Source: an uncultured Chloroflexia bacterium
GTDB taxonomy: Bacteria > Chloroflexota > Dehalococcoidia > UBA2247 > RBG-13-53-26
DNA length: 64,000 nt
NCBI GenBank assembly: GCA_963720375.1
Contig: CAVRFM010000023.1
Location: 18,179 to 82,178, forward strand
Direction of reading: 5' to 3'
Below the pieces are notes generated by a model. It searched no databases, was not told the DNA's origin, and was given only the letters and a program-made list of their open reading frames with translations. A program made the translations under genes and the position numbers. How positions within the stretch are numbered: position 1 is the stretch's first letter; each line of letters begins with the position of its first letter. Positions 6,197 through 48,474 of this stretch are shown in pieces.

Positions 6197-6236
6197 AGTC
6201 TGAGGCATGGACTATACTTGCGAAGGGGGTTTCTAG

Positions 6237-12246: not shown

Positions 12247-12403
12247 TAACGGCTCCTCGTCAGGTTCTGCCAGGGCGTCATGAGGAAGATGGTATGACAG
12301 TCACTGCGATGCTGCTTTTGCATTGTAGGTCTGCTTGTTGATATTATAGATTATAAGGTAAGAATGAGCCCGATTCAAAGTCGGGGAAGATCGAGGAGGG
12401 TCG

Positions 12404-15500: not shown

Positions 15501-15509
15501 TAGCGCGAA

Positions 15510-16079: not shown

Positions 16080-16127
16080 GCCGAAGAAGGCCTTCTAGAT
16101 CAAGCAAAAGATACTCTTGAGGAGGAG

Positions 16128-17054: not shown

Positions 17055-17082
17055 TTTGTGATCTTAAAGCGGATTTAACCTC

Positions 17083-17112
17083 GGTGCACCGTGCCTTAGA
17101 CCACGGTGCACC
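17083..17112. promoter_or_regulatory. perfect 11-bp inverted repeat GGTGCACCGTG-N8-CACGGTGCACC
   Basis: Seen directly between the SDR stop and the cdhC-1 start. No U-tract, so it is more consistent with a regulator binding site or an attenuator than with a simple terminator. Confidence 0.4.
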
Positions 17113-17241
17113 GGGATTTGGTTGTCTGGAGGAACAAGCAAAAACTGGCCTGTTTGAGAAGGCGCTTGTCTAAGGGTCTTCTCAAGCATGGCACAGTCTG
17201 ATATCTGATATATGTATGGATCTATGTAGAAGGAGGTCAAT

Positions 17242-18606
17242 GTGAGTGTTGCGGAAAGTGCCGAGATAAAGATACCAGCCGGAAGGGAGTATCAGTTGCC
17301 GACCGACCCTGATCATCTGTGGGATGGGTTGAAGGATATCGGGTTGGGGATAAGATGGGTAGCTGAGGTAAAAAAGGCCGACATGCAAATTGAGCTGTCG
17401 GGGCCAAAGTGGGAATACAAGAGTTACACCATCCTTGAGATCGTAGAAGAACCGGGGAAGGTCAGGAACGGCATAGTTAACCTTGTTGGCCCGGATATAC
17501 ATGAAGTCCCGCCTGGGAGTTCCTTCCCTATGGCATGGGACATCAAGGTCTATGGCCATGGGATAACCCAGAGACACCGGGAATACATTGAAAGACAAAT
17601 GGCCATGTCATTACATGGTATAGAGGGCTATATGGCCTTTGGCTCATTCCAGGCCCCCTGGATGCGCTTCAGCAAGGCTATCGTTGGACGACTCACCTTT
17701 GCGAAGCTGTGCCAGGTCATACATGCCTACGTCAAGACCGTTGTCCCGCAGGTGGAGGCGATGGAGTTCCGCTGGATCATTGCATCGGAGGAAGTTGGTG
17801 GCCTCAAGCTGATTGAGCCACTTTACAGGTTGGGTATCCAGAGGCTGAAGGCGCAGGAGCTGTCGGTCTCTCTTGAAGATGCTGATGTGGATATCTTCTA
17901 TGGCTGCACTATCTGCAAGTCGCTGGCCCCCAACCACGTGTGCGTCATTACACCGAGCCAGATACCGTACTGTGGCATCCTCTCCTATAATGGAGCGCAG
18001 GTGACGGTGGAGCTTGATCCGGAGGGCTATATCTTCCGGATGAGCAAAGGCGAGTGCAAAAATGAACAAATGGGCAGCTACACCGGTGTGGATGAGGCAG
18101 TCTACGAGAGGTCTAACCATCAGATAAAGCATGTGAATGTCTTCAGTGCCATAAAGTATCCTACTACCAACTGCGGTTGCTTCGAAGGGGCGGCATTCTA
18201 CATTCCTGAAGTAGATGGCCTTGGCCTGGCTATAAGACGGTACATTGGGGTAACTCCGTTGGGCGTAAAGTTCTCGCGTCTGGCCGGCATGATTTCGGGC
18301 GGCTCTCAGAATCATGGAAATAAGGGCGTATCCATGCGGTCCATGCAAAGCAAGACCTTTCTCAAGGGCGATGGAGGTTGGAGCAGGATAGTGTGGATGC
18401 CCGCCGATTTGAAGAAGGAAGTCGCGGAATACATTCCCGAAGAGATCTACGATAAGATTGCCACTGAGCAGGATACCGTTGATCCTATCGAGCTGAAAGA
18501 GTTTCTAAAGAAGAAGAAGCATCCGATAGTAGAGAAGTATTGGAAGAATGGCGAACCACAGCCACTGAAAGTACCACTCCCCGGAGCGAAGTGGCCCGAC
18601 GAATAG
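17242..18606 (+). CDS. cdhC: acetyl-CoA synthase catalytic subunit, archaeal short type (CdhC/AcsB-like), copy 1
   Basis: 454 aa. Contains the A-cluster Cys-Gly-Cys motif (NCGCFE) plus upstream Cys residues (CTICKS...CGIL). Confidence 0.75.
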   Translation: MSVAESAEIKIPAGREYQLPTDPDHLWDGLKDIGLGIRWVAEVKKADMQIELSGPKWEYKSYTILEIVEEPGKVRNGIVNLVGPDIHEVPPGSSFPMAWDIKVYGHGITQRHREYIERQMAMSLHGIEGYMAFGSFQAPWMRFSKAIVGRLTFAKLCQVIHAYVKTVVPQVEAMEFRWIIASEEVGGLKLIEPLYRLGIQRLKAQELSVSLEDADVDIFYGCTICKSLAPNHVCVITPSQIPYCGILSYNGAQVTVELDPEGYIFRMSKGECKNEQMGSYTGVDEAVYERSNHQIKHVNVFSAIKYPTTNCGCFEGAAFYIPEVDGLGLAIRRYIGVTPLGVKFSRLAGMISGGSQNHGNKGVSMRSMQSKTFLKGDGGWSRIVWMPADLKKEVAEYIPEEIYDKIATEQDTVDPIELKEFLKKKKHPIVEKYWKNGEPQPLKVPLPGAKWPDE

Positions 18607-18622
18607 CCTTTGGAGGTGGACT

Positions 18623-18838
18623 ATGGGAGAGAAGACCTGCGGTGTTTGTCAGAAGAAGGTAGCGGAGTTTGCATGTAGTGTGTGTGGCGTACCTCTGTGT
18701 GCTGAATGTGTTCGAGAGGTAGCCATAGAAAACCCTGGTCAGAGAGTTCTGGGTGTATTAACCAGCCCTTTGAAGTCCGGAATGAAGAAGCAAAAAGTAT
18801 GTGAGAAATGCATGAAGGAAGTGGACTTTGTTGAGTAG
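18623..18838 (+). CDS. Cys4x2 zinc-ribbon small protein, copy 1
   Basis: 71 aa with four CxxC pairs (CGVCQ, CSVCG, CAEC, CEKC). A paralogue sits at the same position in module 2. Confidence 0.6.
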   Translation: MGEKTCGVCQKKVAEFACSVCGVPLCAECVREVAIENPGQRVLGVLTSPLKSGMKKQKVCEKCMKEVDFVE

Positions 18839-19120
18839 CGCGGCTCCTTCTTGCTGTTGTTTTGGTGACCCTGTAATTTACAGCAAGTCACTTGATTGCC
18901 GAGAGGCTTTGACTTATTTGCTGGTGTATTCACTTTCTCAAGGTTCTTAAAGACGAAATTCAGTGGTATTTCGAACACGACATTGAAGAAGATCTCTACA
19001 CACTCTGCAGTGAATACCGGGAAGGTCTGCCAGGTGAATAGAGGATATATGTGTTCTGAATCGGTCGTCAATTGTTTGTTCTGCTGACTCAATTAAGCGA
19101 TATCTGGGAGGGAGAAAGCT

Positions 19121-21622
19121 GTGAAAGATAAGAGAATTGCTCATGTCGGATCTCTGGAGGTCGATATCAGCACAGTCGTGCGTGACCCGCGCGGTCATGA
19201 AGACGAAATTGTCGAGATAATGGAGAACGACTTTGTTGAGGGCCGCCATAGTAATTTTGGAGGATGGATAACTCTACTGCCCGATGCGGCAGACATAGCA
19301 GAACTGGATTATGCTCTGTTGAGCAGGTATCCGCCGTTATACACTCAGCCCAATGGTGTTTGCACTGACTGTGGCCTGGGCCCCTGCAACTTGAAAGAGG
19401 GTCAGGGAAAGTGCGGACTGGATATGGAGGCTTTCCAGGGCAGGTTAAGCTTACGGAAAGCATGCCGGGGTTGTATGACTCAACTAGTGGCCAGCCGACA
19501 ATTGCTGAACTACGCTCTCAAACGCTGGCCGGAGGATACGCCTGTCAGCATGGGTGAGATTCTCGGTATCTCAGATCATGCTCCTGCCATAAGCGTGTTA
19601 TCCGGGATACACGTAAAGACTTTAAGAGATCTTAACAGAGCGCTTTCTTATGGAGAGGAACAACTGGCCAAGCTCTTTCAGGCGAGTTATTCGGGCACTG
19701 GAACGGCGGTGAATTTTGAAAGCATGGTGCTGCATGCCGGGTCTGTTTTGCTCCTCACCATGGGTGTGGCTGAGCTGCTGAAGATCTCCTGCTATGGCTT
19801 TATCAGTGCTGCCAATCAGCCACTGGAGGCGATCGAGCAGTTTCCTCCTGCCACTTTAAATGGTGGGTGGGCATCCATGGAGAGTGGGAAGCCTGTCATA
19901 GCCTTTGTTGGGGATGACTTCCTGCCGGCATGGTGTGCCATCGATCATATGAAGCAGAACGGTCTGACAGAAAAGATTGAGATATGCGGCATGGGTTCAG
20001 CCGGTGATGACATAGTGAGATTCTACGATAGGTGCCGGATCGTGGCCCCGATGGTGAGGGCGCCAAAGGCGATCAGAAATGGCCTGTTTGATGTGGTTGT
20101 GGTCAGTCCAGGATGTATTCCCCTGGACCTTCTATCCCAGGCGGAGCGTGTCGATAGCAAGGTTATATGGGTTGGTCACAATGGAATCAGCAATCTAGCG
20201 GATAGCACGGATGAGCCATCAGACAAGATAGTAGAGGCCTTACTTCATGGAGGAAAGGCAGTCTGGATCAGGGACGTAGAGAAGGCTGGTGAGGTGGCGG
20301 TGAAGTTGGCACAGAAGGTCAAGAGAAGTGGTAATTACATTATCTCTGACGATGAAGCAATAAAACAGGCAAAGGGCCATAAGCAGGATTGTGATATTTG
20401 TTCCAGTGTCTGTCCCAATAATCTGCCTGTATCCAGGGCGGTCAGAGAATTGGGTAAGGGTGACTGGAAGGGTTTCTTCGAGGTGGAGAAAGGATGCAAT
20501 TTCTGCGGCAAATGTGATGAGGCCTGCCCCAGCAAGGTTCAACTGCGCGATATCATTGTGGCTGCCGAGAGAAAGCAGGCCGGCACCGATAAATTCATAA
20601 TGAGGCCAGGCAGGGGGCCGATATCAATAACTGAGCTGCTGCAATCTGCTTTCGCAGTAGGCTGGGGCAGCATACCAGCCATGGTGACCATCTTTGGTTG
20701 CGGCGATGCCAAGAAGGAGGAGATCGCCTGGATAGCCAGTGAGTTGCTTAACGGCGGTTGCATGGTCTTTGTGGCAGGGTGTGCCGGAGCTGAAGTAGCT
20801 CGATCTTTCAGCCAGGCGAAGAAGAAGTACCTCTTTCAAGAATATGCTGGCACTTGTGCCTCGAGAAATATTGTGAATTGCGGCAGTTGCTCTGCTATTT
20901 GCCATGCTGTCCCGATGTATCTCATGCTGCGGCCTTCTGGTGGCATTCCTCTGTATGGCAATCTACCACCGCTGGGAGATTCCATCAGTCTTGGTGGTGC
21001 TCAGTCTGTGATCATGTGGGGGGCATTGCCGGACAGAATGTATGCGGTGGCAGCTGCCTGGGCTCGGCTTGGATCAACGGTCATTGTAGGGCCTGCCTCA
21101 TCCTCAGGATGGAACCGCTACCTGGTTGGTGATAGATATGATCGCAGCAAGTGGTGGGTCTATCATGGTGAGACGGGTAAGAGGCGTGAGGTTGAACCGG
21201 TAAAGGAACACTGCATTGTGCCCGTGGAAACTAAAGAGGAAGCGTTGACTATGCTGGCAAGGTCTGTGTTGAATGTAAAGGACTACAGAGAGAGCCGAGC
21301 TACTCACCTGGAGGTGATGATTGACTACTTTGAGCGCTTCTATCAGCAGTTGCCGGAGGATTGGCCTCTCTTTGTGAGGTCAGATTTCGAACTGCCGCCG
21401 AGATACAGACGACGCATGGTCAATCTCCTGGGATCCGAGTATGGATGGGAGACTGAAGGTGTGAAGGTTAAGAGAGCAAAGAATAGAGATGGCAAGCTAA
21501 TGACCATGTCTGAGTTCGCAGCTAACTATGGGATGGAGCAAGGGATATATAGCACAAGGCTTCGCACCCAGTTACCCCTACGTCTCAGGGGTGTGGCTGA
21601 TGAAGGTAAGTCTAAAAAGTAA
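19121..21622 (+). CDS. cdhA: CO dehydrogenase catalytic subunit, archaeal CdhA-like, copy 1
   Basis: 833 aa. N-terminal CTDCGLGPC...GKCG Cys cluster. Two internal ferredoxin motifs (CDICSSVCPNN; CNFCGKCDEACPS) are typical of archaeal CdhA. Adjacent to cdhB and cdhC. Confidence 0.65.
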   Translation: MKDKRIAHVGSLEVDISTVVRDPRGHEDEIVEIMENDFVEGRHSNFGGWITLLPDAADIAELDYALLSRYPPLYTQPNGVCTDCGLGPCNLKEGQGKCGLDMEAFQGRLSLRKACRGCMTQLVASRQLLNYALKRWPEDTPVSMGEILGISDHAPAISVLSGIHVKTLRDLNRALSYGEEQLAKLFQASYSGTGTAVNFESMVLHAGSVLLLTMGVAELLKISCYGFISAANQPLEAIEQFPPATLNGGWASMESGKPVIAFVGDDFLPAWCAIDHMKQNGLTEKIEICGMGSAGDDIVRFYDRCRIVAPMVRAPKAIRNGLFDVVVVSPGCIPLDLLSQAERVDSKVIWVGHNGISNLADSTDEPSDKIVEALLHGGKAVWIRDVEKAGEVAVKLAQKVKRSGNYIISDDEAIKQAKGHKQDCDICSSVCPNNLPVSRAVRELGKGDWKGFFEVEKGCNFCGKCDEACPSKVQLRDIIVAAERKQAGTDKFIMRPGRGPISITELLQSAFAVGWGSIPAMVTIFGCGDAKKEEIAWIASELLNGGCMVFVAGCAGAEVARSFSQAKKKYLFQEYAGTCASRNIVNCGSCSAICHAVPMYLMLRPSGGIPLYGNLPPLGDSISLGGAQSVIMWGALPDRMYAVAAAWARLGSTVIVGPASSSGWNRYLVGDRYDRSKWWVYHGETGKRREVEPVKEHCIVPVETKEEALTMLARSVLNVKDYRESRATHLEVMIDYFERFYQQLPEDWPLFVRSDFELPPRYRRRMVNLLGSEYGWETEGVKVKRAKNRDGKLMTMSEFAANYGMEQGIYSTRLRTQLPLRLRGVADEGKSKK

Positions 21623-21700
21623 ATACGAACCCCCCGCCAGGTTCTGTACCCTGGCACGGTAGTCACGGGAAATAGGGGTTTCTGAACGTAGAAACCGATT

Positions 21701-23101
21701 GTGTTGTGTAGGTTCCACGAAAGGGGTATACAAATGGCTATTCCAGAGGAAGAAGCAGTATCCAAACTCCCACCGGGAAGGATATTTCAGTTGCCGACAG
21801 ACCTTGATCACCTTTGGGACGGGCTGGATGACGTCGGGCTCGGTCTAAGGTGGTTGAGTGAGGTGAAGAAAGCTGACATGCACATTGAGTTGGGTGGGCC
21901 TAAGTGGGACTATAAGATGTTCTCCATCTTCTACATTGAGGAAGATCCGGAAAAGGTCAGGGATGGAGAAGTCAAGTTGATCGGCCCGGACGTTCCAGAA
22001 GTGGCAGCAGGCACCTCATTACCCGGCGGGTTTACGATAAGGATCTATGGTAAACAATTGACTCAAGCACATCAGGGCTATGTATCCAGACAGATAGGAA
22101 CTGCGCTGCAAGGCATAGAAGGATTCATGCTCTTTGGAACGCCGGATGCTCTGTGGATAAGGATAAGCAAAGACGTGGCGAACAGGTTGACCTTTGCCAA
22201 GATATCTCAGTTTTGCTATGCCACCGCGAGAACGCTGATCCCTCAGGTAGATGCCATAGCATTCTTCTGGGCAGTAGGAGCTCCTGAAGTCGGTGGTGTT
22301 GAGATGATAAACCCGCTGGTTACCTGGGCTAAGGAGAAGTTTAAGATCATAAGTGCCAAGGAGCTCTACGATGATGAAGACGTAGATACCTTCTATGGTT
22401 GCACGATCTGCAAATCCCTGGCGCCAAATCATGCCTGTGTCCTTACGCCAAGCGCGCTGCCTTACTGCGGCATCATCGGCTATGATTCGGCTAAGGTAAC
22501 AGCAGAAATAGACCCGGAAGGGTATGTTTTTACTATTCCTAAAGGTGAATGCTTGGATCAGGAGAAAGGGCATTACACGGGAGTCGACCAGGCCATATGG
22601 GAGAAATGCAATCATCTGGTAAAGCGCGTGAACATCTACAGCAGCATAAACTATCCGACTACCAATTGTGGGTGCTTTGAGGCAGCATCTTTCTACATAC
22701 CGGATGTTGATGGTATCGGTCTGGCTATGCGGCGCTATACCAAGATGACACCGCTCGGTGTCAAGTTTTCCACTTTGGCAGGTATGATCTCCGGTGGGGC
22801 TCAGAATCATGGGTTCAAGGGATTGTCGATTGCCGGTATGGCGAGTAAGAACTTCCTGCGAGGAGATGGCGGTTGGAACCGGGTAGTCTGGATGCCTGCG
22901 GATTTGAAGAGGGATATCGCGGATGTGATTCCAGAGGAGGTCTATGACAAGATTGTCACTGAGGAAGAGACTATTGATCCTCTGGAGCTCAAGGAGTTGC
23001 TCCGCAAGAAAGGACACCCAATAGTCAAGCTGTTCTGGAAGAATGGCGAACCCCAGCCATTAAAGTTGCCGCTTCCCGGTGAAGACTGGCCGGATAACTA
23101 A
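21701..23101 (+). CDS. cdhC: acetyl-CoA synthase catalytic subunit (CdhC-like), copy 2
   Basis: 466 aa, about 60% identical to copy 1. NCGCFE A-cluster motif retained. Confidence 0.75.
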   Translation: MLCRFHERGIQMAIPEEEAVSKLPPGRIFQLPTDLDHLWDGLDDVGLGLRWLSEVKKADMHIELGGPKWDYKMFSIFYIEEDPEKVRDGEVKLIGPDVPEVAAGTSLPGGFTIRIYGKQLTQAHQGYVSRQIGTALQGIEGFMLFGTPDALWIRISKDVANRLTFAKISQFCYATARTLIPQVDAIAFFWAVGAPEVGGVEMINPLVTWAKEKFKIISAKELYDDEDVDTFYGCTICKSLAPNHACVLTPSALPYCGIIGYDSAKVTAEIDPEGYVFTIPKGECLDQEKGHYTGVDQAIWEKCNHLVKRVNIYSSINYPTTNCGCFEAASFYIPDVDGIGLAMRRYTKMTPLGVKFSTLAGMISGGAQNHGFKGLSIAGMASKNFLRGDGGWNRVVWMPADLKRDIADVIPEEVYDKIVTEEETIDPLELKELLRKKGHPIVKLFWKNGEPQPLKLPLPGEDWPDN

Positions 23102-23342
23102 ATTTAGATTTGGGGGAATGTTTATGGAAAAGATGTGTGATCTATGCCAAAAAAGGGTAGCGCCGTGGACATGCCATGAATGTGGTATCGCTTTGTGTGA
23201 CGAATGTTCCCGTGAGGTTCGTATTGATTCTACCAGACCTGGCCAGAGAATGATGGGCCGGATCACCAGCCCCATGAAGTCAGGGGTGCAGAAACTAAAG
23301 GTCTGCGAGAAGTGCTTCAAGGAAAAGGAGTTTCTCGGATAA
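23079..23342 (+). CDS. Cys4x2 zinc-ribbon small protein, copy 2
   Basis: 87 aa. CDLCQ, CHECG, CDEC, CEKC. Overlaps the cdhC-2 stop. Confidence 0.55.
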   Translation: MKTGRITKFRFGGMFMEKMCDLCQKRVAPWTCHECGIALCDECSREVRIDSTRPGQRMMGRITSPMKSGVQKLKVCEKCFKEKEFLG

Positions 23343-23365
23343 GAGGTACCCTTTTCTGGTGATGG

Positions 23366-25871
23366 TTGCTGAGGAGAGAAGTAATGGAGAAAAAGAGGAT
23401 TGCCCATGTAGGGCCTCACAAAGTTGACATAAGTGAAGTGGTGCGTGATCCCCGTGGTATTGAGGATATAGTCACGGAGATACTGGAGAAAGACTTTGTT
23501 GAGAGCCGCTATTCACAATTTGGGGCGTGGTTGAATATCTTGCCCGACGCGGCGGATATCGGTGATTGGGATCGCACTCTGCTGGAAAGATATGTGCCGC
23601 TATATACTCAGCCTCAAGGCACGTGCATTGATTGTGAGTTGGGTCCTTGCAGATCTCAAGGTAAGCAAAGGTAAATGCGGATTAGAGATGGATTCGTTTC
23701 AAGGCAGGCTGAGTTTGCGCAAGGCCTGCCGTGGCTGTATGGGCCAGATGGTAGCTACTCGTCATTTGTTGAACTATGCATTGAAGTTATGGGATGAAAG
23801 CAAGGCTGTCAGCATGGGTGAGCTCTTGACCATGTCGGATGCCTGCCCTCCTGTAGGCACTTTGAGCGGCATCTATGTGAAAACCCTCAAGGACTTGAAC
23901 AGGGTGCTCTCATATGGAGAGGCGCAGTTGGCTAAGCTGATGTCTGCGAGCTATTCAGGCACCGGAGCAGTGGCGGATTTTGAGAGCATGGTGATGCATG
24001 CTGGTTCTGTTCTGCTTCTGGCTATGGGAGTGTCTGAGATGATTAAGGTCGCTTGCTTCGGCTTTACGTCAGCCGCTAACCATAAGATTGATGAACTGGA
24101 GAATTTCCCGCCGGCCAACGTGGTTGGAGGATGGCCGTCCATAAAGGAAGGTAAGCCGGTAATTGCCTTTGTCGGCGATGATTTTCTGCCGGCATGGTGT
24201 GCCATAGAGTATCTCAAGCAGAATGAATTGTTGGACAAAGTCGAGATATGCGGTATTGGCCCTGCAGGTGATGACGTGGTGCGCTTCTATGACAAGTGCC
24301 GCATAATCGCTCCGATGGTGAAGGCGGGCAAAGCTATCAGAAATGGTGTCTTCGATGTGGTTGTAGCTGCGAACGGATGTATTCCTTTGGATATGCTATC
24401 TGAAGCGGCAAGGGTAAAGAGCAAGTTCATATGGGTAGGAGCGCAGGGAGTTGGCAATCTGGTCGATAAGACTGATGAACCTCTGGACAAGATAGTGAGT
24501 GCTCTGGTTGATGGTGAAGAGGCAGCTTGGATTAGAGATGTTGAGAAGGCTGGCCAGGTAGCAGTCAAGGTAGTCCAGCAAGTGAAGAGAACACGGCAAT
24601 TTATTCTAAGTGATGAGTTGGCAGTTGCGCAGGCTAAGAAGTGTAAGGATGATTGTGATCTTTGCTCTAGTGCTTGCCCCAATAGCTTGCCATTATCAAA
24701 GGCGGTCAGACTGTTACGCGGCGGTAACTGGGATGGTTTCTCAGAGGTGGAGAGAGGGTGCTATTTCTGTGGAAAGTGTGAAGAGGCTTGCTCGGCTGGG
24801 GTGAGGCTGCGTGACATAATAGTAGCGACTGAAAGGAAACAAGCGAAGAAGGACAAATTCATTATGAGAGCGGGAAGAGGTCCTCTCCCCCTCACTGAGA
24901 TACTGCAGTCGGCTTTTTCCATGGTCTGGGGTAATGCTCCCGGTATCGTGGTGATAGCGGGTTGTGGTGATGCTTCCCGCGATGATATCGGATGGCTGGC
25001 TCAAGAATTAACCAGACGAAACTGCATTGTCTTTGTGGCTGGATGCGCCGGTGCTGAGATTGCCCGCAACTACAGCGAAAGGAAGGGTAAGTATATTTTT
25101 GAGCAGTACCTGGCTTCTATTGAGCCACGGTCTCTCATCAACTGCGGTGGCTGCACCGCAATTTCCCTGGCGAACAACATGTATATGTACTCGCGTGCTG
25201 CCGGAGGCATTCCTCTCTATGGGGGCATACCAGAGGTAGGCGAAGGGTCACTTTATACTACCTTCACGTTGCTTGTGTGGGGTGCTCTGCCTGACAGGAT
25301 GTATGCAGCAGCAGCAGCATATGCCCGTCTTGGGATAAGGGTTGTAGTGGGTCCGGCTTCGGGTTGGACTTGGGGTCGCTATTTGCCTGGCAATAGGTAT
25401 GATCGGAGCAAATGGTGGGTCTATCATGGAGACAATGGTAGTAAGAGGGAAACCGAACCTGTTCCGGAGCATTTTATTATCCCCGTGGAAACCAAAGAGG
25501 AAGCACTGACCATGATGCCCCACACTTTCTTCAGTACATCTGAGATGAGGGAGGGTCGGGCTGCTCGTCTTGACCTGCTTATTGAGTTGTATCGGCTGTT
25601 CTATGGCCAACTTCCCGATGATTGGGATTTGTTGGTGAGGTCCCATTTGGATATCCCGACTAGGCACAGGATCAGGTTGGTTAAGCTACTTCGGGATGAA
25701 TATGGTTGGGAAGGCGATGGATTGAAGATTACCAAGGCCAGGAATCGTGATGGGAAACTGTTAACCCTGTCGGAATTCAATACCAGCTACGGTATGGAGC
25801 TGGGAAGATACCACTGCAGACTGAAGAGACTATTGCCAAAGAGTGTGAGAGATAGAGAAAAGGGCAGTTAG
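23366..25871 (+). CDS. cdhA: CdhA-like CO dehydrogenase subunit, copy 2, with apparent +1 frameshift at ~23651
   Basis: ORFs 23366..23674 and 23562..25871 together reconstitute a CdhA-1 homologue. The frames join directly after CELGPC (TGC-A-GATCTC). Confidence 0.6.
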
Positions 25872-26365
25872 TCCTCCTCATCCTTAGTTTCCTCCGATTT
25901 TACGAGGTCAAGTGCGCTGAAGGGGCATTTTTCAGCGCATAGGTTACAGATATCAAGACCCGGTACTGCGCGTTTACAGCTTGACCATTCTACTACGTTA
26001 AGATTGCCGTCTATCACTTTAATGACTGGTGGTACGGGGGCGCGCTGAGAGAGCCTGCCGCCGGAAGTGATAGTGGTAAGTGCTCTATCGCAGACGGCGA
26101 CGCAATCACCGCAACCGGTGCATCTCGACCTATCAATGACGTGATCTGTACCTTTGATGCGCTCTCCTTCCCCCAACATCTCCTTCAGCATATCGTATGA
26201 ATCACGGAATTCTTCCTTGAGAAGGAGGGGGCAGTCAGCCGGCTTCTTATTCCTGCTTATGAGGTCGAAGGCAAAGGCATAACACGTGGGAGAACCACAG
26301 AGCTTACAATTGGTGCGTGGCAATAGCCTGTACATCTGGAGCGGTTGAAGATCTTTCTTAGGCAA
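25868..26365 (-). CDS. RnfB-like polyferredoxin
   Basis: The N-terminal LPRTNCKLCGSPTCYAFAF motif is the Fe-S domain found in RnfB and the AcsC N-terminus. Two CxxCxxCxxxC(P) ferredoxin motifs follow. Confidence 0.6.
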   Translation of the reverse strand: MPKKDLQPLQMYRLLPRTNCKLCGSPTCYAFAFDLISRNKKPADCPLLLKEEFRDSYDMLKEMLGEGERIKGTDHVIDRSRCTGCGDCVAVCDRALTTITSGGRLSQRAPVPPVIKVIDGNLNVVEWSSCKRAVPGLDICNLCAEKCPFSALDLVKSEETKDEED

Positions 26366-26762
26366 CTTTCCTCCTGACCAGGAGGTCTGAGGGCGTGGTA
26401 ATATTCTTTTCGGTCGGTATGGCTGTCACATCTATCATCTTAAGGTTTGGCAGTTGCGATACCGATGGATCGTAGCTTCCCAGGTAGTTAGAATACAGGC
26501 TGGACGGCATATGGCCTATGCCTTCTTCGATAGCGGTTTCTGATTTTGCTGCCACCACCACGGAGCCTGATTTGCCTCTGATCTCGATAGGGGCGCCACT
26601 CTTAAGCCCCAGCTTTTTCAGATCAGCCGCGGATAGGTGCACCACGGCAGACCTGGTCTGATATTCATCGCCCAATCCATCTCTCTGCCTGGCAATCGCC
26701 TGGTGAATATCGTCATAGGTCACGATGGTCAGACTAATACCCTGGTTAGATGAATCCATCAA
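26358..26762 (-). CDS. fwdD: formylmethanofuran dehydrogenase subunit D-like (molybdopterin-binding domain)
   Basis: 134 aa. Overlaps fwdB by 4 nt. Size and context match the FwdD family. Confidence 0.5.
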   Translation of the reverse strand: MMDSSNQGISLTIVTYDDIHQAIARQRDGLGDEYQTRSAVVHLSAADLKKLGLKSGAPIEIRGKSGSVVVAAKSETAIEEGIGHMPSSLYSNYLGSYDPSVSQLPNLKMIDVTAIPTEKNITTPSDLLVRRKVA

Positions 26763-27982
26763 ATGCTCCCTGCCAATTGTTTCAGGACTTCCTCCTCGGT
26801 AGGCTGATCTACTTTTTTTGGCCCGGCTAATGCTACCTCAGCCCCATCCATTCTTATCATTGAGCCACCGTATTCTACGCCGGGCAGTGCTGTTGGTATG
26901 ACCACATCAGCGGAGATCGTGGTAGGTGTACGGAAGTGATCCAAACAGATGACGTTTATGCCCTGCAGATTCTTCATTATGGACTGAGGCAGAGCTGAAA
27001 ACGGATCTGCCCCCATTATTAGCAGGCATTCGGGGACACGGTTTCTTACTTGTTCCAATAAGGAGAACTCACTTCCGTGAGAAATGCTGCCGGCAAAGCT
27101 TATGCTGTTAACATATCCCGTCTGTTTGTAGAGCGATTGATGGAATCCTCTCATGTTGGCTTCTGCGATCATGGGAATCACAGCAACCCTGGTCGACTGA
27201 CTGAACGTATGTACCATCTTGCTGAATGAGGTGAGATCATTGTCAAGAGAGTAGATCAGGCCGAGCCCGCAGAAGATGACGCAAAAGCGAGATTTTGCCA
27301 CCATTTCTCTGAATTTTCTGGCTTCCTCACGTGCGTTTTGTCCCTCATCGAGGATGGTATTGATGAATCCCTTATCCTGTCCAGGCTTGATTCTGAAGGG
27401 CGGCTTACACATTGAGCTTAACTCAGTCTGTCTAACCTCGACGCAGCTTAGTGTTACCTTGGGGTACCATCCGGCGGGATTATAATCAGCATAGGCATAG
27501 TAAGTGTACTTCGAAAGGTGCCTCGGGTGGGTGTGGGGAGGATTGGCACCCCAGTAGATTAGCAGATCTGCATTATCTTTTACTTCGGAGAGAGAGCATG
27601 TTGGCAGATCCTCGGTAAGGATTTTCTGCATCATGACACCATATGAAAAGGATGAGGCGTCATCGATAGTTCCGCCAAGCCTTTTTGCCAGATCGATGGC
27701 AACCGCCTGTGATTCTAAGGTCGAATTATCAAGACCAAAGACGAGGAGATTCTTTGCCTTGGAAAGGAGGTGCACTGCCTCTTGAATGGCTTCTTCCAAA
27801 GAGCGCCTTTGGCCTCTAATGAGGGCCTCTGCCCGGCGCTGCGGATCGAAGCTGGAACGGAGATAGGTCGCCCCCTTGGCACAGGCGTTCTCGATACGGC
27901 CCAGATTGGCACCGTCGATCTCAACCCGGATATCGTCGCATAGGCAACCGCATCCGGTGCAGACCAAGTTCTGAAAGCTCAA
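26759..27982 (-). CDS. fwdB: formylmethanofuran dehydrogenase subunit B-like (bis-MGD oxidoreductase fold)
   Basis: N-terminal VCTGCGCLCDD Fe-S motif and downstream blocks (DLLIYWGANPPHTHPRH) align with archaeal FwdB as recalled from memory. Confidence 0.65.
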   Translation of the reverse strand: MSFQNLVCTGCGCLCDDIRVEIDGANLGRIENACAKGATYLRSSFDPQRRAEALIRGQRRSLEEAIQEAVHLLSKAKNLLVFGLDNSTLESQAVAIDLAKRLGGTIDDASSFSYGVMMQKILTEDLPTCSLSEVKDNADLLIYWGANPPHTHPRHLSKYTYYAYADYNPAGWYPKVTLSCVEVRQTELSSMCKPPFRIKPGQDKGFINTILDEGQNAREEARKFREMVAKSRFCVIFCGLGLIYSLDNDLTSFSKMVHTFSQSTRVAVIPMIAEANMRGFHQSLYKQTGYVNSISFAGSISHGSEFSLLEQVRNRVPECLLIMGADPFSALPQSIMKNLQGINVICLDHFRTPTTISADVVIPTALPGVEYGGSMIRMDGAEVALAGPKKVDQPTEEEVLKQLAGSI

Positions 27983-28100: not shown

Positions 28101-30311
28101 TCATGAATACGAAGTGCGAGCTGCTGCTGCTTCTTCGACCAAGGTGGCAGGCAGTTCCTCAGGTCCGACAAGGTAGATTCTCCCCTTCCCTACTTTGGCA
28201 ATCCTTCTCATCAACTCCGGATCGGCGGATCGCTGGTTGATACAGACGCAGGAAATTGTAATACCTCGGCGAGCTACCCTGGCAGCTTGCCTGAGGGCGT
28301 ACTTCTGTGGGGATGGATGGGGTGCTGTCGCATCGCCATCGGATATGAGGATAATATGCTGCTTTGCTCTTCCCTTGGGGTGATGTTCCAGCAATTCACA
28401 GGCCTTCAGCAAACCATAGCCGATGTTGGTAAAAGCGTTCTCATGCAGCTCGAGTTCAATTACACGGCGAGTCACTCTGTGAGGGCTGGCGGTTAGATCG
28501 ACCACAATATCAGCCAGGTTGGAGAATGAGACCACTGCCACCCTGTCTTTATATGCAGTCGCGGCCAGTGAGAGAGCCATCGCGCTTTGCTTAGCGAACC
28601 AAAATTTCTCGAGTTGCAACATAGTGCCGGAGACATCGATCACCAAGACAATATCCATTCTGGTGCGGATGTCTTTGATATTGACGATGATATCTTCTCT
28701 GGTGATGTATTGTCTTCGGTGGCGGATTGCCTCTCTCATGGTATTTCTGAATGATATGTCGCGGTATTTGTCCCCGAAGCGATAGTGGCGCATTCCCACC
28801 ACTCTGCCCTCGCCCAAGCTCAACTTCTTACCCGAGCTGTGCTTCCCATATCCATATAGATAAGCTCCCTCGTCCAACCGTGGCGTCAACTTCTCCAATA
28901 GCATGTTAATGCCACGCTGGCTGAGCATCCAGCCGCTGCTGGTACGCTCCAGGATATCTTCCTTCTCCAGAAATTCAAGGGTTTTGGCCAGCGCTTGCTG
29001 CTCTATAAGCTTGGCTATCATTTCCTTTTCTTTTCTGTATTCTTCAACTTCCTTAAGCAACTCATCATCGAGATTATCGGCTTTGTATCGTTCCGGGTAG
29101 AGCTCTGGCAAGCGACAGGCAATCTCTCTGTATAGCTGGGCCAGTTTGGAGTCAGGGAATCGTTTGATTCTCCTTAGCAGTAGATCGAAGGAGCCATATT
29201 TCAGAGGTTTCCTGAACTTATCTTCCCGGACAATCTCCTCGATCAGGGCCAGAACATCATCTTTGGTCAGGGTAGCCAGCTGTTCCCTGGCTTCATGTTT
29301 GCCGGTTACCTTCTCGACAACTTCCTCAACAATTCGCTCTCTCTTCCCGGGCAGATCGACCTCCGGGGCCAGTTTAAGGCGGTGGGGCAGCGAGACTGCT
29401 GCTGCGACAGAAAGTCTTCTATCGGCGTCCTCGTATTCCTCCAATTCAGGGAAGTGGGCTAGAAGCTCAGCATTTCTAATCATGCCGCGCGTTCCTACTC
29501 CCCTTTCTACCTCGCTGTGTCTTCTCGTCTCGTTAACTATGCGAATTGCCTGCTCAAGAACTGGTTCGGCTAAGGTTTCTGTATCACGGCCGATGTGGGC
29601 AAGAACAATCCTCTTTTGCTTATCAAGATCGTCAACGTAGTCAAGGTGGATAACATCAAAGTTGTCCAGCAAGTCCAGTGGTAATGACTTTAATGCTCCC
29701 TCTCCGCCAGTGGCTACTACTAGGGTATCCAGTTTGATCTTTTGTTCCAACACACCAATGGTTATTGTTCCATCTTGGAGGGCATACATAACTACATTGA
29801 GCACTCGCTCAGGGATTCTATCGATGAAATCAATCAGCAATATGCCTCGATTAGCCCGTAACAGTTTTCCGGGCAGGAAAGCACGAGGAGAGTAAATACC
29901 TTCTTTAAAGGCTATTTCTGGATCAAGGTCTCCGATCAGATCTTCAACCGTTAACCCTCCGCTTCCTTGTATCTTCACCAATCTCCTGGCTGCAGGGAGG
30001 ATGGTGCTGTGAAGTATTTCACCTCGCTTTTTCCTGTCTATACACCAGGGGCAGGGATCATCTTTAGGAAAACAATGTAGGGGACAGCCTTCTACTACCT
30101 CAATATCATCCAGAATAACAGGTAGGCTGTTGGCTAAACTTGTTTTACCACTTCCGGGGGGGCCAAGAATAAGCAGGTGGTGTGCACTGCAGAGACTGCT
30201 TAGTAAGGCCAGCTTCTTCGCATCTTCTATTTGAAGATCATCAAAGACTGACCGGCTAAACTTGTCAGTGCCTATTCTGTCTAGGGTGGTAAGGATTTCT
30301 TCCAGAAGCAA
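28101..30311 (-). CDS. ChlD/BchD-like protein: AAA+ N-domain with Cys4 insertion + C-terminal VWA domain
   Basis: GPPGSGKTS Walker A. CPLHCFPKDDPCPWC insertion. C-terminal VLVIDVSGTM...ILISDGDATAP is a VWA domain with a MIDAS motif. 736 aa. Confidence 0.7.
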   Translation of the reverse strand: MLLEEILTTLDRIGTDKFSRSVFDDLQIEDAKKLALLSSLCSAHHLLILGPPGSGKTSLANSLPVILDDIEVVEGCPLHCFPKDDPCPWCIDRKKRGEILHSTILPAARRLVKIQGSGGLTVEDLIGDLDPEIAFKEGIYSPRAFLPGKLLRANRGILLIDFIDRIPERVLNVVMYALQDGTITIGVLEQKIKLDTLVVATGGEGALKSLPLDLLDNFDVIHLDYVDDLDKQKRIVLAHIGRDTETLAEPVLEQAIRIVNETRRHSEVERGVGTRGMIRNAELLAHFPELEEYEDADRRLSVAAAVSLPHRLKLAPEVDLPGKRERIVEEVVEKVTGKHEAREQLATLTKDDVLALIEEIVREDKFRKPLKYGSFDLLLRRIKRFPDSKLAQLYREIACRLPELYPERYKADNLDDELLKEVEEYRKEKEMIAKLIEQQALAKTLEFLEKEDILERTSSGWMLSQRGINMLLEKLTPRLDEGAYLYGYGKHSSGKKLSLGEGRVVGMRHYRFGDKYRDISFRNTMREAIRHRRQYITREDIIVNIKDIRTRMDIVLVIDVSGTMLQLEKFWFAKQSAMALSLAATAYKDRVAVVSFSNLADIVVDLTASPHRVTRRVIELELHENAFTNIGYGLLKACELLEHHPKGRAKQHIILISDGDATAPHPSPQKYALRQAARVARRGITISCVCINQRSADPELMRRIAKVGKGRIYLVGPEELPATLVEEAAAARTSYS

Positions 30312-30329: not shown

Positions 30330-31091
30330 TCAACTGTAGCTCAGTATCTTCTTGCAGATTTCATCTATCGCAATGGATGCTGGAGAGTCTTTTGGAATCT
30401 CGCTCACAGGTTTGCCTTCGCCATCAAACTGTGCCACTAGCGGTTCGAAGGGGATATAGGCTGCTATCTCGAGACCGTTTTCCTTGGCCAACTCGTCTAC
30501 TCGAGACCTGTTTTCCTCCGTCACTCTGTTGGCCACTATCAGGATGGCGCCAAACTCGATATTGAGCTCTCTTGATATCTCCACAATTCTCTTAGCAGTT
30601 TGAATGGCATTTTTTGTAGGATCGGTAACCACCAGCATGATGTCAACATCCCGGGTAGTGCGCCGGCTAAGGTGCTCCAGCCCTGCGTGACAGTCGATTA
30701 TAGTGAAATCATAACCCCTTGCTCTAGTGTCTATTACCTGTCGGATGACGTGGTTGACGGCGCAGTAGCATCCCTCACCCTCCGAACGCCCCATTACGAG
30801 TATGTCGAATTGAGGGAACTCCTCAATAGCTTCGTGGAGGGCCAACTCCAGATGTTCTTGTTTAGAATTTGTCACCTTGCTACGAGCTGGTGCGTTTATA
30901 ATTGCCTCCCGGCTCTCTCCTACATTCTTGGTCACTGTCACACCAAGGGCTTGGGGGAGGTTGGAATCCGGGTCGGCATCAATTGCCAGTACACTACCGT
31001 GCTCCGATAACTTCTTTACCAGCATGCCTGACACAAAGGTCTTCCCTACTCCGCCCTTTCCGGAGACCGCAATAGCAAGTCCTCTGCTCAT
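30330..31091 (-). CDS. cooC: CooC-type Ni-insertion ATPase (MinD/ParA family)
   Basis: Deviant Walker A AVSGKGGVGKT. GCYCAVN CxC Ni-binding motif characteristic of CooC/AcsF. Confidence 0.75.
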   Translation of the reverse strand: MSRGLAIAVSGKGGVGKTFVSGMLVKKLSEHGSVLAIDADPDSNLPQALGVTVTKNVGESREAIINAPARSKVTNSKQEHLELALHEAIEEFPQFDILVMGRSEGEGCYCAVNHVIRQVIDTRARGYDFTIIDCHAGLEHLSRRTTRDVDIMLVVTDPTKNAIQTAKRIVEISRELNIEFGAILIVANRVTEENRSRVDELAKENGLEIAAYIPFEPLVAQFDGEGKPVSEIPKDSPASIAIDEICKKILSYS

Positions 31092-32128
31092 GAGTACTTC
31101 CCTTCCAGAACGCTATTTACCAGTTCATTAATCAAATTCATGGGGTCATCGTAGAACTTGGACTCAGGCGATGGCTTGATTCTGCTACCAAGAGAGGAAG
31201 CGGCCATATTTCGTATATCATCCATATTTGCTTCAGATCGGTTTTCCAGCTTTGCCACAGCCTGTACCTTCTCATAAAGCGAAAGTGTAGCTCTTACACT
31301 GGCGGCTTGATCCATCTCCTTCGACCAAGGCTCTTCACGTGTAGCTCGTACCAGGGCAACCACGGCATCAAGTACTTTATCCGGCACTCTTACGTTATCA
31401 ATCCTGAGGCCATATCGGACTACTATCTCCTTCTCTTTTTGCAGAGATTCAGGATAGCCCATCTTGACTACATCAAATCTATCGAGAAGGACATCGGAAA
31501 GCTCCTCGACCCCAGCCCGTTCTCTCGGATTCATGGTAGCTATCATCACAAAATCAGCCGGGTAGTCTACGTCGTAAGGCCCTATCGTCGCGATGCCCTC
31601 TTCAAGGACCTCTAATAGAGCATTTTGAAGTTTCTCTGTAACCCTGTTAAGTTCATCGAAGAAAACGATCCCTCGATTGCCTTTGAGCAATTTCCCCGGC
31701 AAGAATGCTCGGTAGTCCTGGGGACCATACTTGAAAGCCTGTGTTGGATCGATATCTCCCAAGAGGTCCTCAGCCGTAAGGTCAGGAGAACCCTGCAACC
31801 TGACGAACCTTTGCTCACCAGGAATTATAGTGGACTCCAGTTTCTCACCAGTGGAAGCCTTTGCCTTGCACTGTGGGCAGACAGGCTGTTCCGGGTGGCA
31901 ATGGTAAGGACAACCCTTCACCACCTTTATAGGAGGCAAAGCTGCCGCTATGTGCTTGGCGAGAGTAGTCTTGCCAACTCCAGGCGGTCCCTCAATCAGC
32001 ACGTGATGGCCAGCCAGCAATGACGCAAGGATCCTTTTCTTGGCATCATCCTGGCCCACAATGACTGAAAGCATGTCATTCCCATCGGTCGCAGATTTCA
32101 GGATCGTTTCTCTTAGTCCCTCAATCAT
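31088..32128 (-). CDS. ChlI/BchI-like AAA+ ATPase with Cys4 zinc-ribbon insertion
   Basis: VIVGQDDAKKRILASLL + GPPGVGKTT + LPPIKVV matches the magnesium-chelatase I-subunit N-terminal pattern. CPYHCHPEQPVCPQC is inserted after it. 4-nt overlap with cooC. Confidence 0.7.
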   Translation of the reverse strand: MIEGLRETILKSATDGNDMLSVIVGQDDAKKRILASLLAGHHVLIEGPPGVGKTTLAKHIAAALPPIKVVKGCPYHCHPEQPVCPQCKAKASTGEKLESTIIPGEQRFVRLQGSPDLTAEDLLGDIDPTQAFKYGPQDYRAFLPGKLLKGNRGIVFFDELNRVTEKLQNALLEVLEEGIATIGPYDVDYPADFVMIATMNPRERAGVEELSDVLLDRFDVVKMGYPESLQKEKEIVVRYGLRIDNVRVPDKVLDAVVALVRATREEPWSKEMDQAASVRATLSLYEKVQAVAKLENRSEANMDDIRNMAASSLGSRIKPSPESKFYDDPMNLINELVNSVLEGKYS

Positions 32129-32192: not shown

Positions 32193-33131
32193 TTGCAGGG
32201 GCGGTTGCTGGGTATCAGGAGGCTTCTCTGGGTCAGTGAAGGAACTGAATATTGGTGTTTTGACGCTGCAGATAGTGATTGTTATAATGGCCTCGTGGCA
32301 CGAACAAATGGGGTTCCCGCTAAGATGCTGACGGTAGGTGAAGTCAACAGTACTTTTGCTGAAAAGGGAGTGGATATTAAGCTGCCGTTGCCCACTCACT
32401 TTTTGGTAAAGAATCTGCAGGTTCTTGAGAGAAGGAAAGTCCCGGGTGGGGTGGGGCTACTTTTGAGCGTAGAGTTCATAAATGATAATGGGGAGGAAGT
32501 TACCGATCTGTTTCACTGTGAAGGAGGGGTAAAGGTAGAGGGTAGAAAGAAGACTGAAACAGCAGAGATCCAGCAGCCACCCCTGACAGACCTGCTGCCC
32601 CTGCGCTCGAAAGAGGAATTTGAGAGCGATGACGAGGTGAAGTCTTATTTGAAAGAAGCTATCAGTCACCTGCTGCAGGATAAGGGGTACCGGCTTGGTG
32701 AGCGCGGCGATGTTGATTTGTATTTTGAGCGGCAGGAGCAGGGGTTCTTTATTAGTCTGGCAGTACGGTGTGACGAGTCACTCCTTGAAAAGGCGAAGAG
32801 CTTAGTAGAACTAAGGCAGAGGTATGGTGTTGATAATGAGTATGGCCTTATAGTCCCAGCCTTTCAGGATTCTCTGGGGGTTCCGCTTCTAAGTCAGGAG
32901 CGCTGGATATTGAGAAACCAGGAGTTCCTGACAATAAATCGGATCGGGGTCTATGCTGTTGATAATTGGAATCCAAATCTGCTCTATGCTTTTACTATTC
33001 ACCCTTCCCCAAGAGATCTCAAGAAATACTTCATGACTACGGGACCTAAGTGGTCTCTGGTTCGTAGCCGCTATGTTCTGGGCAGATCTAAGAAGAAGGC
33101 GGCTGGTCTTGAGTCTCCATCGGATGGTTAG
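32193..33131 (+). CDS. hypothetical protein (true start probably internal, about 32325)
   Basis: Long ORF, no recognisable motif. Confidence 0.35.
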   Translation: MQGRLLGIRRLLWVSEGTEYWCFDAADSDCYNGLVARTNGVPAKMLTVGEVNSTFAEKGVDIKLPLPTHFLVKNLQVLERRKVPGGVGLLLSVEFINDNGEEVTDLFHCEGGVKVEGRKKTETAEIQQPPLTDLLPLRSKEEFESDDEVKSYLKEAISHLLQDKGYRLGERGDVDLYFERQEQGFFISLAVRCDESLLEKAKSLVELRQRYGVDNEYGLIVPAFQDSLGVPLLSQERWILRNQEFLTINRIGVYAVDNWNPNLLYAFTIHPSPRDLKKYFMTTGPKWSLVRSRYVLGRSKKKAAGLESPSDG

Positions 33132-45247: not shown

Positions 45248-45251
45248 CTCG

Positions 45252-46206: not shown

Positions 46207-46250
46207 CTTTGGCCAGGAATGAATGCTCGGTCAACGGTCATCATTGTTAT

Positions 46251-46781: not shown

Positions 46782-46792
46782 CCGCCTATCCC

Positions 46793-48377: not shown

Positions 48378-48474
48378 AGATCACTCCTTCTTCGCGATTC
48401 GTGATTTGTGAAGCTTTGTGCAGTGGAGCAGGGCCTTATTTCACCTTCCTCGCGTCAGTCCTGCCAAATGCTCC

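Follow-up and report, generated by a model that had tools for sequence, protein, structure and literature searches.

Background

In formylmethanofuran dehydrogenase, the catalytic residues of subunit FwdB are Cys118, His119 and Arg288, and Cys118 is the tungsten ligand (Hemmann et al. 2019, PMC6926001). A domain of the FwdD type caps and coordinates the pterin, and it is absent where the cofactor has been lost (PMC6926001). Here we describe a pair of FwdB and FwdD homologues, designated FwdB' and FwdD', that are encoded together with an iron-sulfur (Fe-S) protein of the ferredoxin kind in 64,000 nucleotides of DNA from an uncultured Chloroflexia bacterium (Dehalococcoidia in the GTDB lineage; assembly GCA_963720375.1, contig CAVRFM010000023.1, positions 18,179 to 82,178 of the forward strand). 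This whole stretch is called the window below, and the three genes are called the trio.

A bacterial FwdB homologue that has lost its dehydrogenase function is already known. FhcB of Methylorubrum extorquens (6S6Y) has Ser at the position of Cys118, and His119 and Arg288 are not conserved in it (PMC6926001). In FhcB the [4Fe-4S] domain and a domain IV of the FwdD type are missing, the loops are in steric conflict with the pterin, and the protein serves as a scaffold for FhcA, FhcC and FhcD (PMC6926001). Another relevant observation concerns carbon monoxide dehydrogenase (CODH). According to Inoue et al. 2019, their structural groups A-4 and A-6 are found only in bacteria, branch deeply, have “incomplete active-site signatures” and cluster with acetyl-CoA synthase (ACS) (PMC6344411).

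An initial annotation, made from the letters of the window, regarded fwdB' and fwdD' as an orphan pair. We find that the trio is instead fixed in a conserved module of about 12 genes that includes homologues of the Cdh subunits of CODH/ACS (CdhA', CdhB' and CdhC'; 15030–25871 of the window). We estimate at about 0.5 the probability that the trio is a redox partner or a structural module of a non-canonical CODH/ACS-like enzyme.

The trio and its homology

The three genes of the trio (Table 1) are intact open reading frames (ORFs). The start codon of fwdB' is TTG, preceded by GTGAGG. The stop and start codons at the fwdB'/fwdD' junction overlap in TGATG, so that the likely ATG start of fwdD' is at 26759. 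The end of fwdD' overlaps the start of the Fe-S protein gene by 8 nt, with AGGAGG just upstream. To judge by these overlaps, the three genes are translationally coupled, as the initial annotation held.

FwdB' matches the NCBIfam model TIGR03129 over its whole length (316.8 bits, E 1.6e-94) and narrowly misses the equivalog cutoff of 327.8. Among solved structures it matches five FwdB/FmdB chains, most closely 5t5i_B of M. wolfeii (HMMER, E 3.6e-53, residues 4–403). FwdD' scores 34.4 bits against PF01568, above the gathering cutoff of 26.8, and it matches chain 5t5i_D (E 1.8e-5). Its score against the NCBIfam FwdD model is 40.7 bits, far under the cutoff of 175.

Residues 15–46 of the Fe-S protein match PF04060 (E 4.3e-12), a domain common to RnfB and to the N-terminus of CdhE/AcsC. 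Thus the RnfB/AcsC-type domain that had been noticed before is present. Two motifs of the CxxCxxCxxxC type follow it. Because of this domain and the two four-Cys motifs, three clusters are predicted; the protein is a ferredoxin, and the earlier label “polyferredoxin” overstates it. The RnfB model TIGR01944 gives 38.3 bits, which does not reach its cutoff of 68.7. The protein has no membrane anchor (its N-terminus, MPKKDLQPLQMYRLLPRT, is not hydrophobic), and no rnf genes lie near its gene.

Replacement of the catalytic residues of FwdB'

In the HMMER alignment, “DNTASVCHG” of M. wolfeii FwdB is placed against “DDASSFSYG” of FwdB', so that Cys118 corresponds to Ser113 and His119 to Tyr114. MAFFT gives the same two replacements and, in addition, Ile272 in place of Arg288. 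The codon of Ser113 is TCA; there is no UGA codon for selenocysteine (Sec). The hand alignment behind the initial annotation, which had suspected the loss of the metal-ligating Cys or Sec, was therefore right, and the alignment to FwdB structures that it had proposed as a test places neither residue at the ligand position. The extent of the loss had been underestimated: by alignment, all three catalytic residues are replaced. With the triad replaced and the TIGR03129 cutoff missed, FwdB' is a non-canonical member of the FwdB family, as had been supposed. The N-terminal [4Fe-4S] motif is present (C8, C11, C15 and C34, followed by K36 in a C-A-K-G motif).

The AlphaFold 2 model of FwdB' has a predicted local distance difference test score (pLDDT) of 84 and a predicted template modelling (TM) score of 0.84. 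A Foldseek search with this model gave TM scores of 0.88–0.89 to the FwdB chains 5t5i_B and 5t5m_B and 0.68 to FhcB, with NuoG and other complex I chains among the structural neighbours. The high TM score to FwdB indicates that the alignment of the active site is not an artefact of a divergent fold.

A search of 5.8 billion proteins with FwdB' returned 395 proteins at E < 1e-20, the best 120 being 52–100% identical to the query. Hundreds of homologues, 46–93% identical, occur in three phyla, all of them in metagenome-assembled genomes (MAGs) or metagenomes, and the public-database protein P0001 is identical to FwdB'. We counted active-site residues in 116 full-length close homologues. The residue equivalent to Cys118 is Ser in 101 (87%), Cys in seven, Thr in five, Ala in two and Leu in one. 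The next position is occupied by Tyr, Phe or Trp in 106 of the 116 (91%). At the position of Arg288, Ile or Val is found in 101 relatives and Arg in none. The four [4Fe-4S] Cys residues are invariant within the clade, and about 60 residues are invariant in a sample of 22 of its sequences. Many clade-invariant residues fall in the loop 149–174 (PHTHPRHLSKYTYYAYADYNPAGWYPKV), where the AlphaFold pLDDT is below 50; this loop is probably an interface with a partner or a cofactor.

P0106 (AWI) and P0098 (AFV), the two proteins with Ala at the Ser113 position, are encoded in contigs that have the gene cassette in full. The position therefore seems not to require a liganding hydroxyl. Ser as a new metal ligand was down-weighted by us for the Ala and Leu variants, and the earlier suggestion of a differently liganded enzyme is weakened accordingly. 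The other suggestion, a non-redox protein, is unlikely: the [4Fe-4S] ligands of FwdB' are invariant and the three-cluster ferredoxin is always attached.

Evolution of the FwdB' clade

A search of 1.84 billion representatives revealed the four-Cys motif in all 130 full-length representatives of the FwdB family (clustered at 50% identity), while the C-H-R triad (residues 118, 119 and 288) was found in only about 20 of them. Hence FwdB-like proteins without the triad are common and largely unstudied. Many more triad-less groups of the family are found among Chloroflexota, Planctomycetota, Firmicutes and archaea.

With the nearest outgroup sequence, P0141, as the query, 613 proteins were retrieved, mostly from Methanothrix and other Methanosarcinales. 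Ninety of these have C-Q-V in place of the triad and 27 have C-E-V. The Methanothrix sister clade (for example, P0284 and P0295) is about 39% identical to FwdB'. In acetoclastic Methanothrix, too, there is a trio, in the order ferredoxin (PF04060), FwdB' (C-Q-V), FwdD' (loci L057 and L058, Table 1). No Cdh', ChlI/D or CooC genes are found near it in these two loci. Its FwdB', which has neither His119 nor Arg288, is annotated as formylmethanofuran dehydrogenase subunit B, and the trio may be miscounted as a part of the CO2-reduction pathway.

In a rough neighbour-joining tree the canonical C-H-R clade is separate. The S-Y-I clade, to which FwdB' belongs, is nested among Cdh'-linked bacterial sequences with C-Q-V or C-Q-G, beside the Methanothrix clade. 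Since the C-Q-V relatives and the Methanothrix clade keep the Cys, His119 and Arg288 were apparently lost before it. The simplest order that the sequences suggest is that a FwdBD unit gained the ferredoxin, then lost His and Arg, was next recruited to the Cdh' module in bacteria, and finally lost the Cys in Dehalococcoidia; this order is a tentative reading of a distance tree. The stepwise series from C-H-R (canonical) through C-Q-V (Methanothrix and some bacteria) to S-Y-I (Dehalococcoidia) is natural material for learning what a FwdBD unit does after CO2 reduction is gone.

The conserved gene module

We compared 18 window proteins with 56 loci by tblastn, and a scan of GTDB species genomes added 22 loci with close FwdB' homologues. 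FwdD', the ferredoxin, ChlI', CooC' and ChlD' are encoded in all close FwdB' loci (46–69% identity; n = 33) that have enough flanking sequence, and most of these loci also encode CdhA', CdhC', CdhB' and two proteins of no assigned function, u189 and u312. None of these partners is present in any of the 24 loci that have only distant FwdB homologues (at most 33% identity). FwdD' adjoins FwdB' in every related locus that is long enough to show it. The module occurs in MAGs of Dehalococcoidia, Nitrospinota and Thermodesulfobacteriota.

The module is a single co-directional operon in L007/L008, L025 (a Nitrospinae MAG) and L031, that is, in three lineages including Nitrospinota. The order of its genes is ChlI-CooC-CdhC'-ChlD-73aa-CdhA'-CdhB'-u189-FwdB'-FwdD'-FeS-u312, with u312 being the final gene in L007 and L025. 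Rearranged versions were found in Thermodesulfobacteriota and Deltaproteobacteria MAGs (L028, L034). In the window the operon is split into two convergent units and a divergent u312. The CdhC'/CdhA' pair is duplicated there, and likewise in L014, L020 and L030. ChlI', CooC' and ChlD' are encoded directly upstream of FwdB' on the same strand, in agreement with the initial annotation, and in L001 and L003 the gap between ChlD' and FwdB' is just 4 nt.

No fwdA, fwdC, fwdE, molybdenum cofactor (Moco) biosynthesis or Mo/W-transport genes were found among the Pfam matches of plausible ORFs in the window that encode 150 amino acids (aa) or more, and so the statement that fwdB' and fwdD' occur without fwdA, fwdC and fwdE holds at this scale. 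The inspected related loci likewise contain no fwdA/fwdC, Moco-biosynthesis or Mo/W-transport genes. Within about 10 kb, more than 30 loci have no fwdA/C, ftr or amidohydrolase gene, nor does the window contain any, and no fhcA, fhcC or fhcD (ftr) was found in the window or in the inspected loci. The corrinoid proteins CdhD and CdhE (PF03599, full-length CdhE) are also absent from the window and the inspected loci; the sole CdhE-like part there is the N-terminal Fe-S domain of about 50 residues on the ferredoxin.

Active sites of the Cdh' proteins

CdhC'-1 aligned to 9c0s_E keeps all A-cluster ligands (CxxC..C..C and C-G-C). The alignment of CdhA'-1 to 8riu_A shows changes at the C-cluster: the His site G-H-N is replaced by G-D-D and the first Cys ligand site C-C by G-S, while the other four Cys residues are kept. 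These changes are family-wide, as G-D-D and G-S/P/A were found in 20 of the 20 CdhA' sequences covering both sites (one more sequence is truncated there). Structural group A-4 of Inoue et al. has D and P at those positions, and the neighbouring group A-6 has N and S (PMC6344411). By these residues, CdhA' is A-4-like. Neither PMC6344411 nor the 2026 genomic-context study PMC13056359 mentions molybdopterin, formylmethanofuran/FwdB-like or chelatase-like partners.

CdhA'-2 scores 422 against TIGR00314, which does not reach the cutoff of 781. Its N-terminal part of about 100 residues, including a C..C....C motif, is in another frame (23366–23674 versus 23562–25871). The frameshift near 23650 is either an assembly indel or the mark of a real pseudogene.

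Other genes of the module and of the window

ChlI' and ChlD' match the Pfam families Mg_chelatase, AAA_3/AAA_5 and VWA. They do not reach the equivalog scores of class I chelatase ChlI and ChlD (100 bits versus 467 and 64 versus 500), and there is no CobN/ChlH substrate-binding subunit in the window or in the inspected loci. Homologues of ChlD' in related loci are 53–81% identical. Soon after Walker A both proteins have an insert with four Cys residues (CPYHCHPEQPVCPQC in ChlI' and CPLHCFPKDDPCPWC in ChlD'), and so does the L007 homologue. The insert may be a Zn or other metal site, atypical of photosynthetic ChlI/ChlD. The library matches of CooC' are generic (CbiA/ParA/MinD). Its C-Y-C motif resembles the Ni-binding motif of CooC, and its gene adjoins cdhC' in the single-operon loci.

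The protein u312 has no Pfam or NCBIfam match, and all its 115 homologues are labelled “hypothetical”. Its AlphaFold 2 model resembles only AF2093 of Archaeoglobus fulgidus (PDB 2ph7), which is uncharacterised. The protein u189 also matches 2ph7 (E 1e-5) and is a distant paralogue of the C-terminal half of u312 (hhalign probability 80%). Both u189 and this half of u312 show a weak restriction-endonuclease-like fold. The 71-aa protein of the window is homologous to the 73-aa protein encoded between ChlD' and CdhA' in L007 (6148–6369), and L003 and L005 have a 71-aa gene in the equivalent position.

Genes of acyl-CoA metabolism are often found near the module: a methylmalonyl-CoA-mutase family protein with MeaB and a B12-binding subunit, a short-chain dehydrogenase/reductase (SDR), thiolase and enoyl-CoA hydratase. 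In the window the set of MeaB and the two mutase subunits lies directly upstream of cdhB', and the same set accompanies the module in L003, L005, L009 and L032. It may be linked to the Cdh' system.

The window also encodes a hydrogenase gene set (Table 1) that resembles the Hup-HupX-OmeB part of the organohalide-respiration complex of Dehalococcoides; no OmeA or RdhA is in view. Because cdhA'-2 and hupL, the gene of the hydrogenase large subunit, are frame-broken, the assembly may contain indel errors. The SAD/SRA-HNH gene next to the BglII-like endonuclease gene is probably a modification-dependent restriction gene; this pair is unrelated to the FwdB' module. At the edge of the window lies a gene of a CoxE-type VWA protein, whose usual MoxR partner may be just outside.

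Table 1 Positions of the genes discussed, counted from the first nucleotide of the window unless another locus is named
Gene or protein	Position	Strand	Description
CoxE-type VWA protein	34–912	plus	
BglII-like restriction endonuclease, then SAD/SRA-HNH protein	5681–6935	plus	
MeaB, methylmalonyl-CoA-mutase-family large subunit, B12-binding small subunit	11404–14444		
CdhB'	15030–15500	plus	epsilon-subunit-like; PF02552 E 3e-4
u189	15510–16079	plus	189 aa, no function assigned; directly precedes FwdB' in single-operon loci
SDR	16128–17054	plus	
CdhC'-1	17242–18606	plus	ACS beta subunit homologue
71-aa protein	18623–18838	plus	four CxxC pairs
CdhA'-1	19121–21622	plus	archaeal-type CODH alpha homologue; ferredoxin insert kept
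CdhC'-2	21701–23101	plus	second ACS beta homologue
CdhA'-2	23366–25871	plus	second CdhA' copy; convergent with the Fe-S protein gene; frame broken near 23650
Fe-S protein (ferredoxin)	25868–26365	minus	165 aa; PF04060 (RnfB/CdhE-type) domain and two ferredoxin-type four-Cys motifs
FwdD'	26358–26762	minus	134 aa; separate domain-IV (Molydop_binding) cap subunit
FwdB'	26759–27982	minus	407 aa; FwdB-fold molybdopterin-oxidoreductase homologue
ChlD'	28101–30311	minus	AAA+ domain with Cys4 insert and C-terminal VWA
CooC'	30330–31091	minus	MinD/ParA-type P-loop ATPase; GKGGVGKT and C-Y-C motifs
ChlI'	31088–32128	minus	ChlI/MoxR-like AAA+ ATPase, Cys4 insert; overlaps the start of CooC' by 4 nt
u312	32328–33131	plus	no function assigned; ORF opens at 32193, homologues start with MLTV; divergent from ChlI'
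Hydrogenase small and large subunits, HycI protease, HybA/HupX-like four-cluster ferredoxin, NrfD-type membrane protein	44057–49671	minus	
NiFe-hydrogenase large subunit (hupL)	46793–48377	minus	at least three ORFs: 48189–48377 (ends RICGV), 47880–48095, 46793–47908
Methanothrix trio, L057	9514–11615		ferredoxin (PF04060), FwdB' (C-Q-V), FwdD'
Methanothrix trio, L058	9533–11614		ferredoxin (PF04060), FwdB' (C-Q-V), FwdD'

Discussion

The homology of the proteins, the residue replacements and their conservation, the linkage of the genes and their phyletic spread are direct observations. From them we infer a physical complex, the role of ChlI', ChlD' and CooC', an electron flow whose direction is likewise inferred, and a substrate. 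FwdB', FwdD' and the RnfB/CdhE-type ferredoxin would form one soluble iron-sulfur protein descended from a CO2-reducing FwdBD unit, with both CO2 reduction and formate oxidation lost. Such chemistry is not expected because small, aromatic and aliphatic residues replace the catalytic triad and there are no FwdA and FwdC to use formate. What would remain is an electron wire made of the three ferredoxin clusters, of the N-terminal [4Fe-4S] cluster of FwdB' and the Lys beside it, and perhaps of a pterin that is still bound. The role of a redox or structural module is proposed because this wire, the cap, the signature blocks and the invariant loop 149–174 are all kept. The partner enzyme would consist of CdhC' with an intact site for the Ni-Ni-[4Fe-4S] A-cluster, CdhA', whose C-cluster site is remodelled, and CdhB', and it would work without the corrinoid gamma and delta subunits. 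ChlI' and ChlD' (AAA+/VWA) together with CooC' could be ATP-driven factors that assemble or activate the metal centres of this partner. We tie them to Cdh' rather than to FwdB' because the single operon has their genes interspersed among cdhC' and cdhA', and the Methanothrix trio loci lack them.

Several observations weigh against this interpretation. Conservation is strong in the pterin signature blocks (WG.NP..HPRH and E.GG..R.DG) and in the cap subunit, which fits a catalytic or cofactor-bearing site and would be needless for a plain Fe-S wire. It extends to Ser113 and to the aromatic residue at 114, perhaps for reasons of function and not of packing. In the lineage of the window FwdB' adjoins ChlI/CooC/ChlD and not Cdh'. 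The Methanothrix trio stands alone, and thus the trio can work without Cdh'. Finally, both the complex and any activity of it are predicted from the genes.

The main alternative, which we consider doubtful, is that FwdB'D' is still a Mo/W-bis-pyranopterin enzyme, with a rebuilt active site, and that it catalyses a new reaction supplying or draining the A-cluster enzyme. The metal would be held by Ser or by no protein ligand, as in dimethyl sulfoxide reductase and arsenite oxidase, in a pocket lined by Tyr/Phe/Trp and Ile/Val. Binding of a pterin by FwdB' is possible by sequence. The cap FwdD' is always retained, the Lys of the C-x-K-G motif is present, and the preference for Ser and an aromatic residue in the active site is as high as stated above. 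Of the 55 near-invariant positions of canonical FwdB, 29 are unchanged, including WG.NP, HPRH and the G..R block. However, the other 26 are either changed but conserved (seven) or variable (19), R214, D196, N277 and P307 being among them. In addition, Ala or Leu occupies the ligand position in otherwise complete modules, the pocket replacements are hydrophobic, and no inspected locus has Moco or Mo/W-transport genes. Relatives without the cofactor, such as NuoG, also keep all four domains.

Another explanation assigns the chelatase-like motor and a putative Ni-binding chaperone of the GTPase/ATPase type to FwdB'D' itself: ChlI', ChlD' and CooC' would equip its former tungsten site with another kind of metal centre. 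The position of ChlI'-CooC'-ChlD' directly upstream of FwdB' in the window and in most Dehalococcoidia loci, with the 4-nt gap in two of them, agrees with this, and there is a precedent in CoxD/CoxE of aerobic CO dehydrogenase, a MoxR/VWA pair that matures a molybdenum site. Nevertheless, we regard it as improbable, given that the single operon places these genes among cdhC' and cdhA' and not beside fwdB', that the Methanothrix trio has none of them nearby, and that CooC is a known Ni-insertion factor of CODH/ACS while Ni sites are predicted in CdhC'.

It is very improbable that the trio belongs to an ordinary formylmethanofuran dehydrogenase or to an Fhc-type complex with other subunits encoded elsewhere. 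This is what the label “formylmethanofuran dehydrogenase subunit B” given to the homologues by Joint Genome Institute (JGI) pipelines and the near-cutoff TIGR03129 score would imply, but the triad is lost, the genes expected of such a complex are missing from the window and around the related loci, and it is Cdh', ChlI/D and CooC that accompany the trio constantly. We rejected a true Fwd with distant subunits on these residues and this gene context, and an FhcB-type scaffold for the presence of the Fe-S domain and the cap. A decaying pseudogene or an assembly artefact has a negligible chance despite the frameshifts in cdhA'-2 and hupL of the same window, as the ORFs of the trio are intact and coupled, an identical public protein exists, and the many homologues in three phyla share about 60 invariant residues.

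Returning to the trio as a redox or structural module of a CODH/ACS-like enzyme, the module can be viewed as a widespread set of companions to the CdhA group A-4 with its “incomplete active-site” signatures (PMC6344411). It brings together the metalloenzyme lineages ACS, CODH and Fwd, with rebuilt active sites in two of the three, and has a chelatase-type AAA+/VWA motor attached. The gene combination appears to be undescribed: in the literature combining Fwd, CODH/ACS, Chloroflexi/Dehalococcoidia, chelatase, CooC, VWA and Methanothrix we found no description of such a module. There is also a practical consequence. Since pipelines label these genes “formylmethanofuran dehydrogenase subunit B”, surveys could count them as methanofuran-dependent C1 metabolism of Chloroflexota, and both the residues and the gene context argue against this.

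A bolder and rather unlikely proposal is that the twelve-gene module encodes a Ni-dependent enzyme complex of a class not recognised before, one that carbonylates or decarbonylates and would be a corrinoid-independent route to the C-C bond of acyl-CoA. If it were true, the A-cluster subunit would work with the remodelled CdhA' site and a likewise remodelled Fwd-type site (pterin or other metal) in place of the corrinoid gamma and delta subunits. An acyl-CoA C-C bond would then be made or broken in this way in subsurface Dehalococcoidia, Nitrospinota and Desulfobacterota, and ChlI/ChlD/CooC would be a dedicated ATP-driven machine for metal insertion.

Comparison with known systems

The tungsten enzyme of M. 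wolfeii (5T5I) and FwdB'D' have the same fold, the same split between a B subunit with a [4Fe-4S] cluster and a separate D cap, and the pterin-family blocks. In contrast to FwdBD of M. wolfeii, FwdB'D' is found without FwdA/C/E/F/G, its partner is a ferredoxin of the RnfB/CdhE type, and it is set among Cdh'-ChlI/D-CooC.

The comparison with FhcB that the initial annotation proposed is valid in part. FhcB and FwdB' are both bacterial FwdB homologues with Ser at the Cys118 position and with the His and Arg lost. Unlike FhcB, FwdB' has the Fe-S domain and the cap, its partners are different, and the structural match between the two is weaker than that with FwdB (TM 0.68).

The trio of Methanothrix and other Methanosarcinales consists of the same three genes. 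Its ferredoxin, too, has the PF04060 domain, and its FwdB' has likewise lost His119 and Arg288. It differs in that the Cys is kept (C-Q/E-V), and it is archaeal and stands alone.

With regard to the archaeal acetyl-CoA decarbonylase/synthase (CdhABCDE), CdhA', CdhB' and CdhC' are homologues of its alpha, epsilon and beta subunits, the A-cluster site is intact and a CooC-like protein is present. Compared with CdhABCDE, the module has no CdhD/CdhE, and it has in addition FwdB'D' with the ferredoxin, ChlI/ChlD, u189, u312 and the 71-aa Cys-rich protein.

By analogy, the nearest functional counterparts of FwdB'D' would be the C-terminal domain of NuoG/Nqo3, QrcB and OmeA. As proposed for FwdB', these are Fdh-like subunits kept in a larger complex, as electron or structural modules, after the Fdh chemistry was lost. 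OmeA, which has Ser at the Sec/Cys position, is described as an Fdh-like subunit of the Dehalococcoides organohalide-respiration complex and comes from the same bacterial class as the window. NuoG, QrcB and OmeA differ from FwdB' in that they represent other subfamilies and work in membrane-associated complexes.

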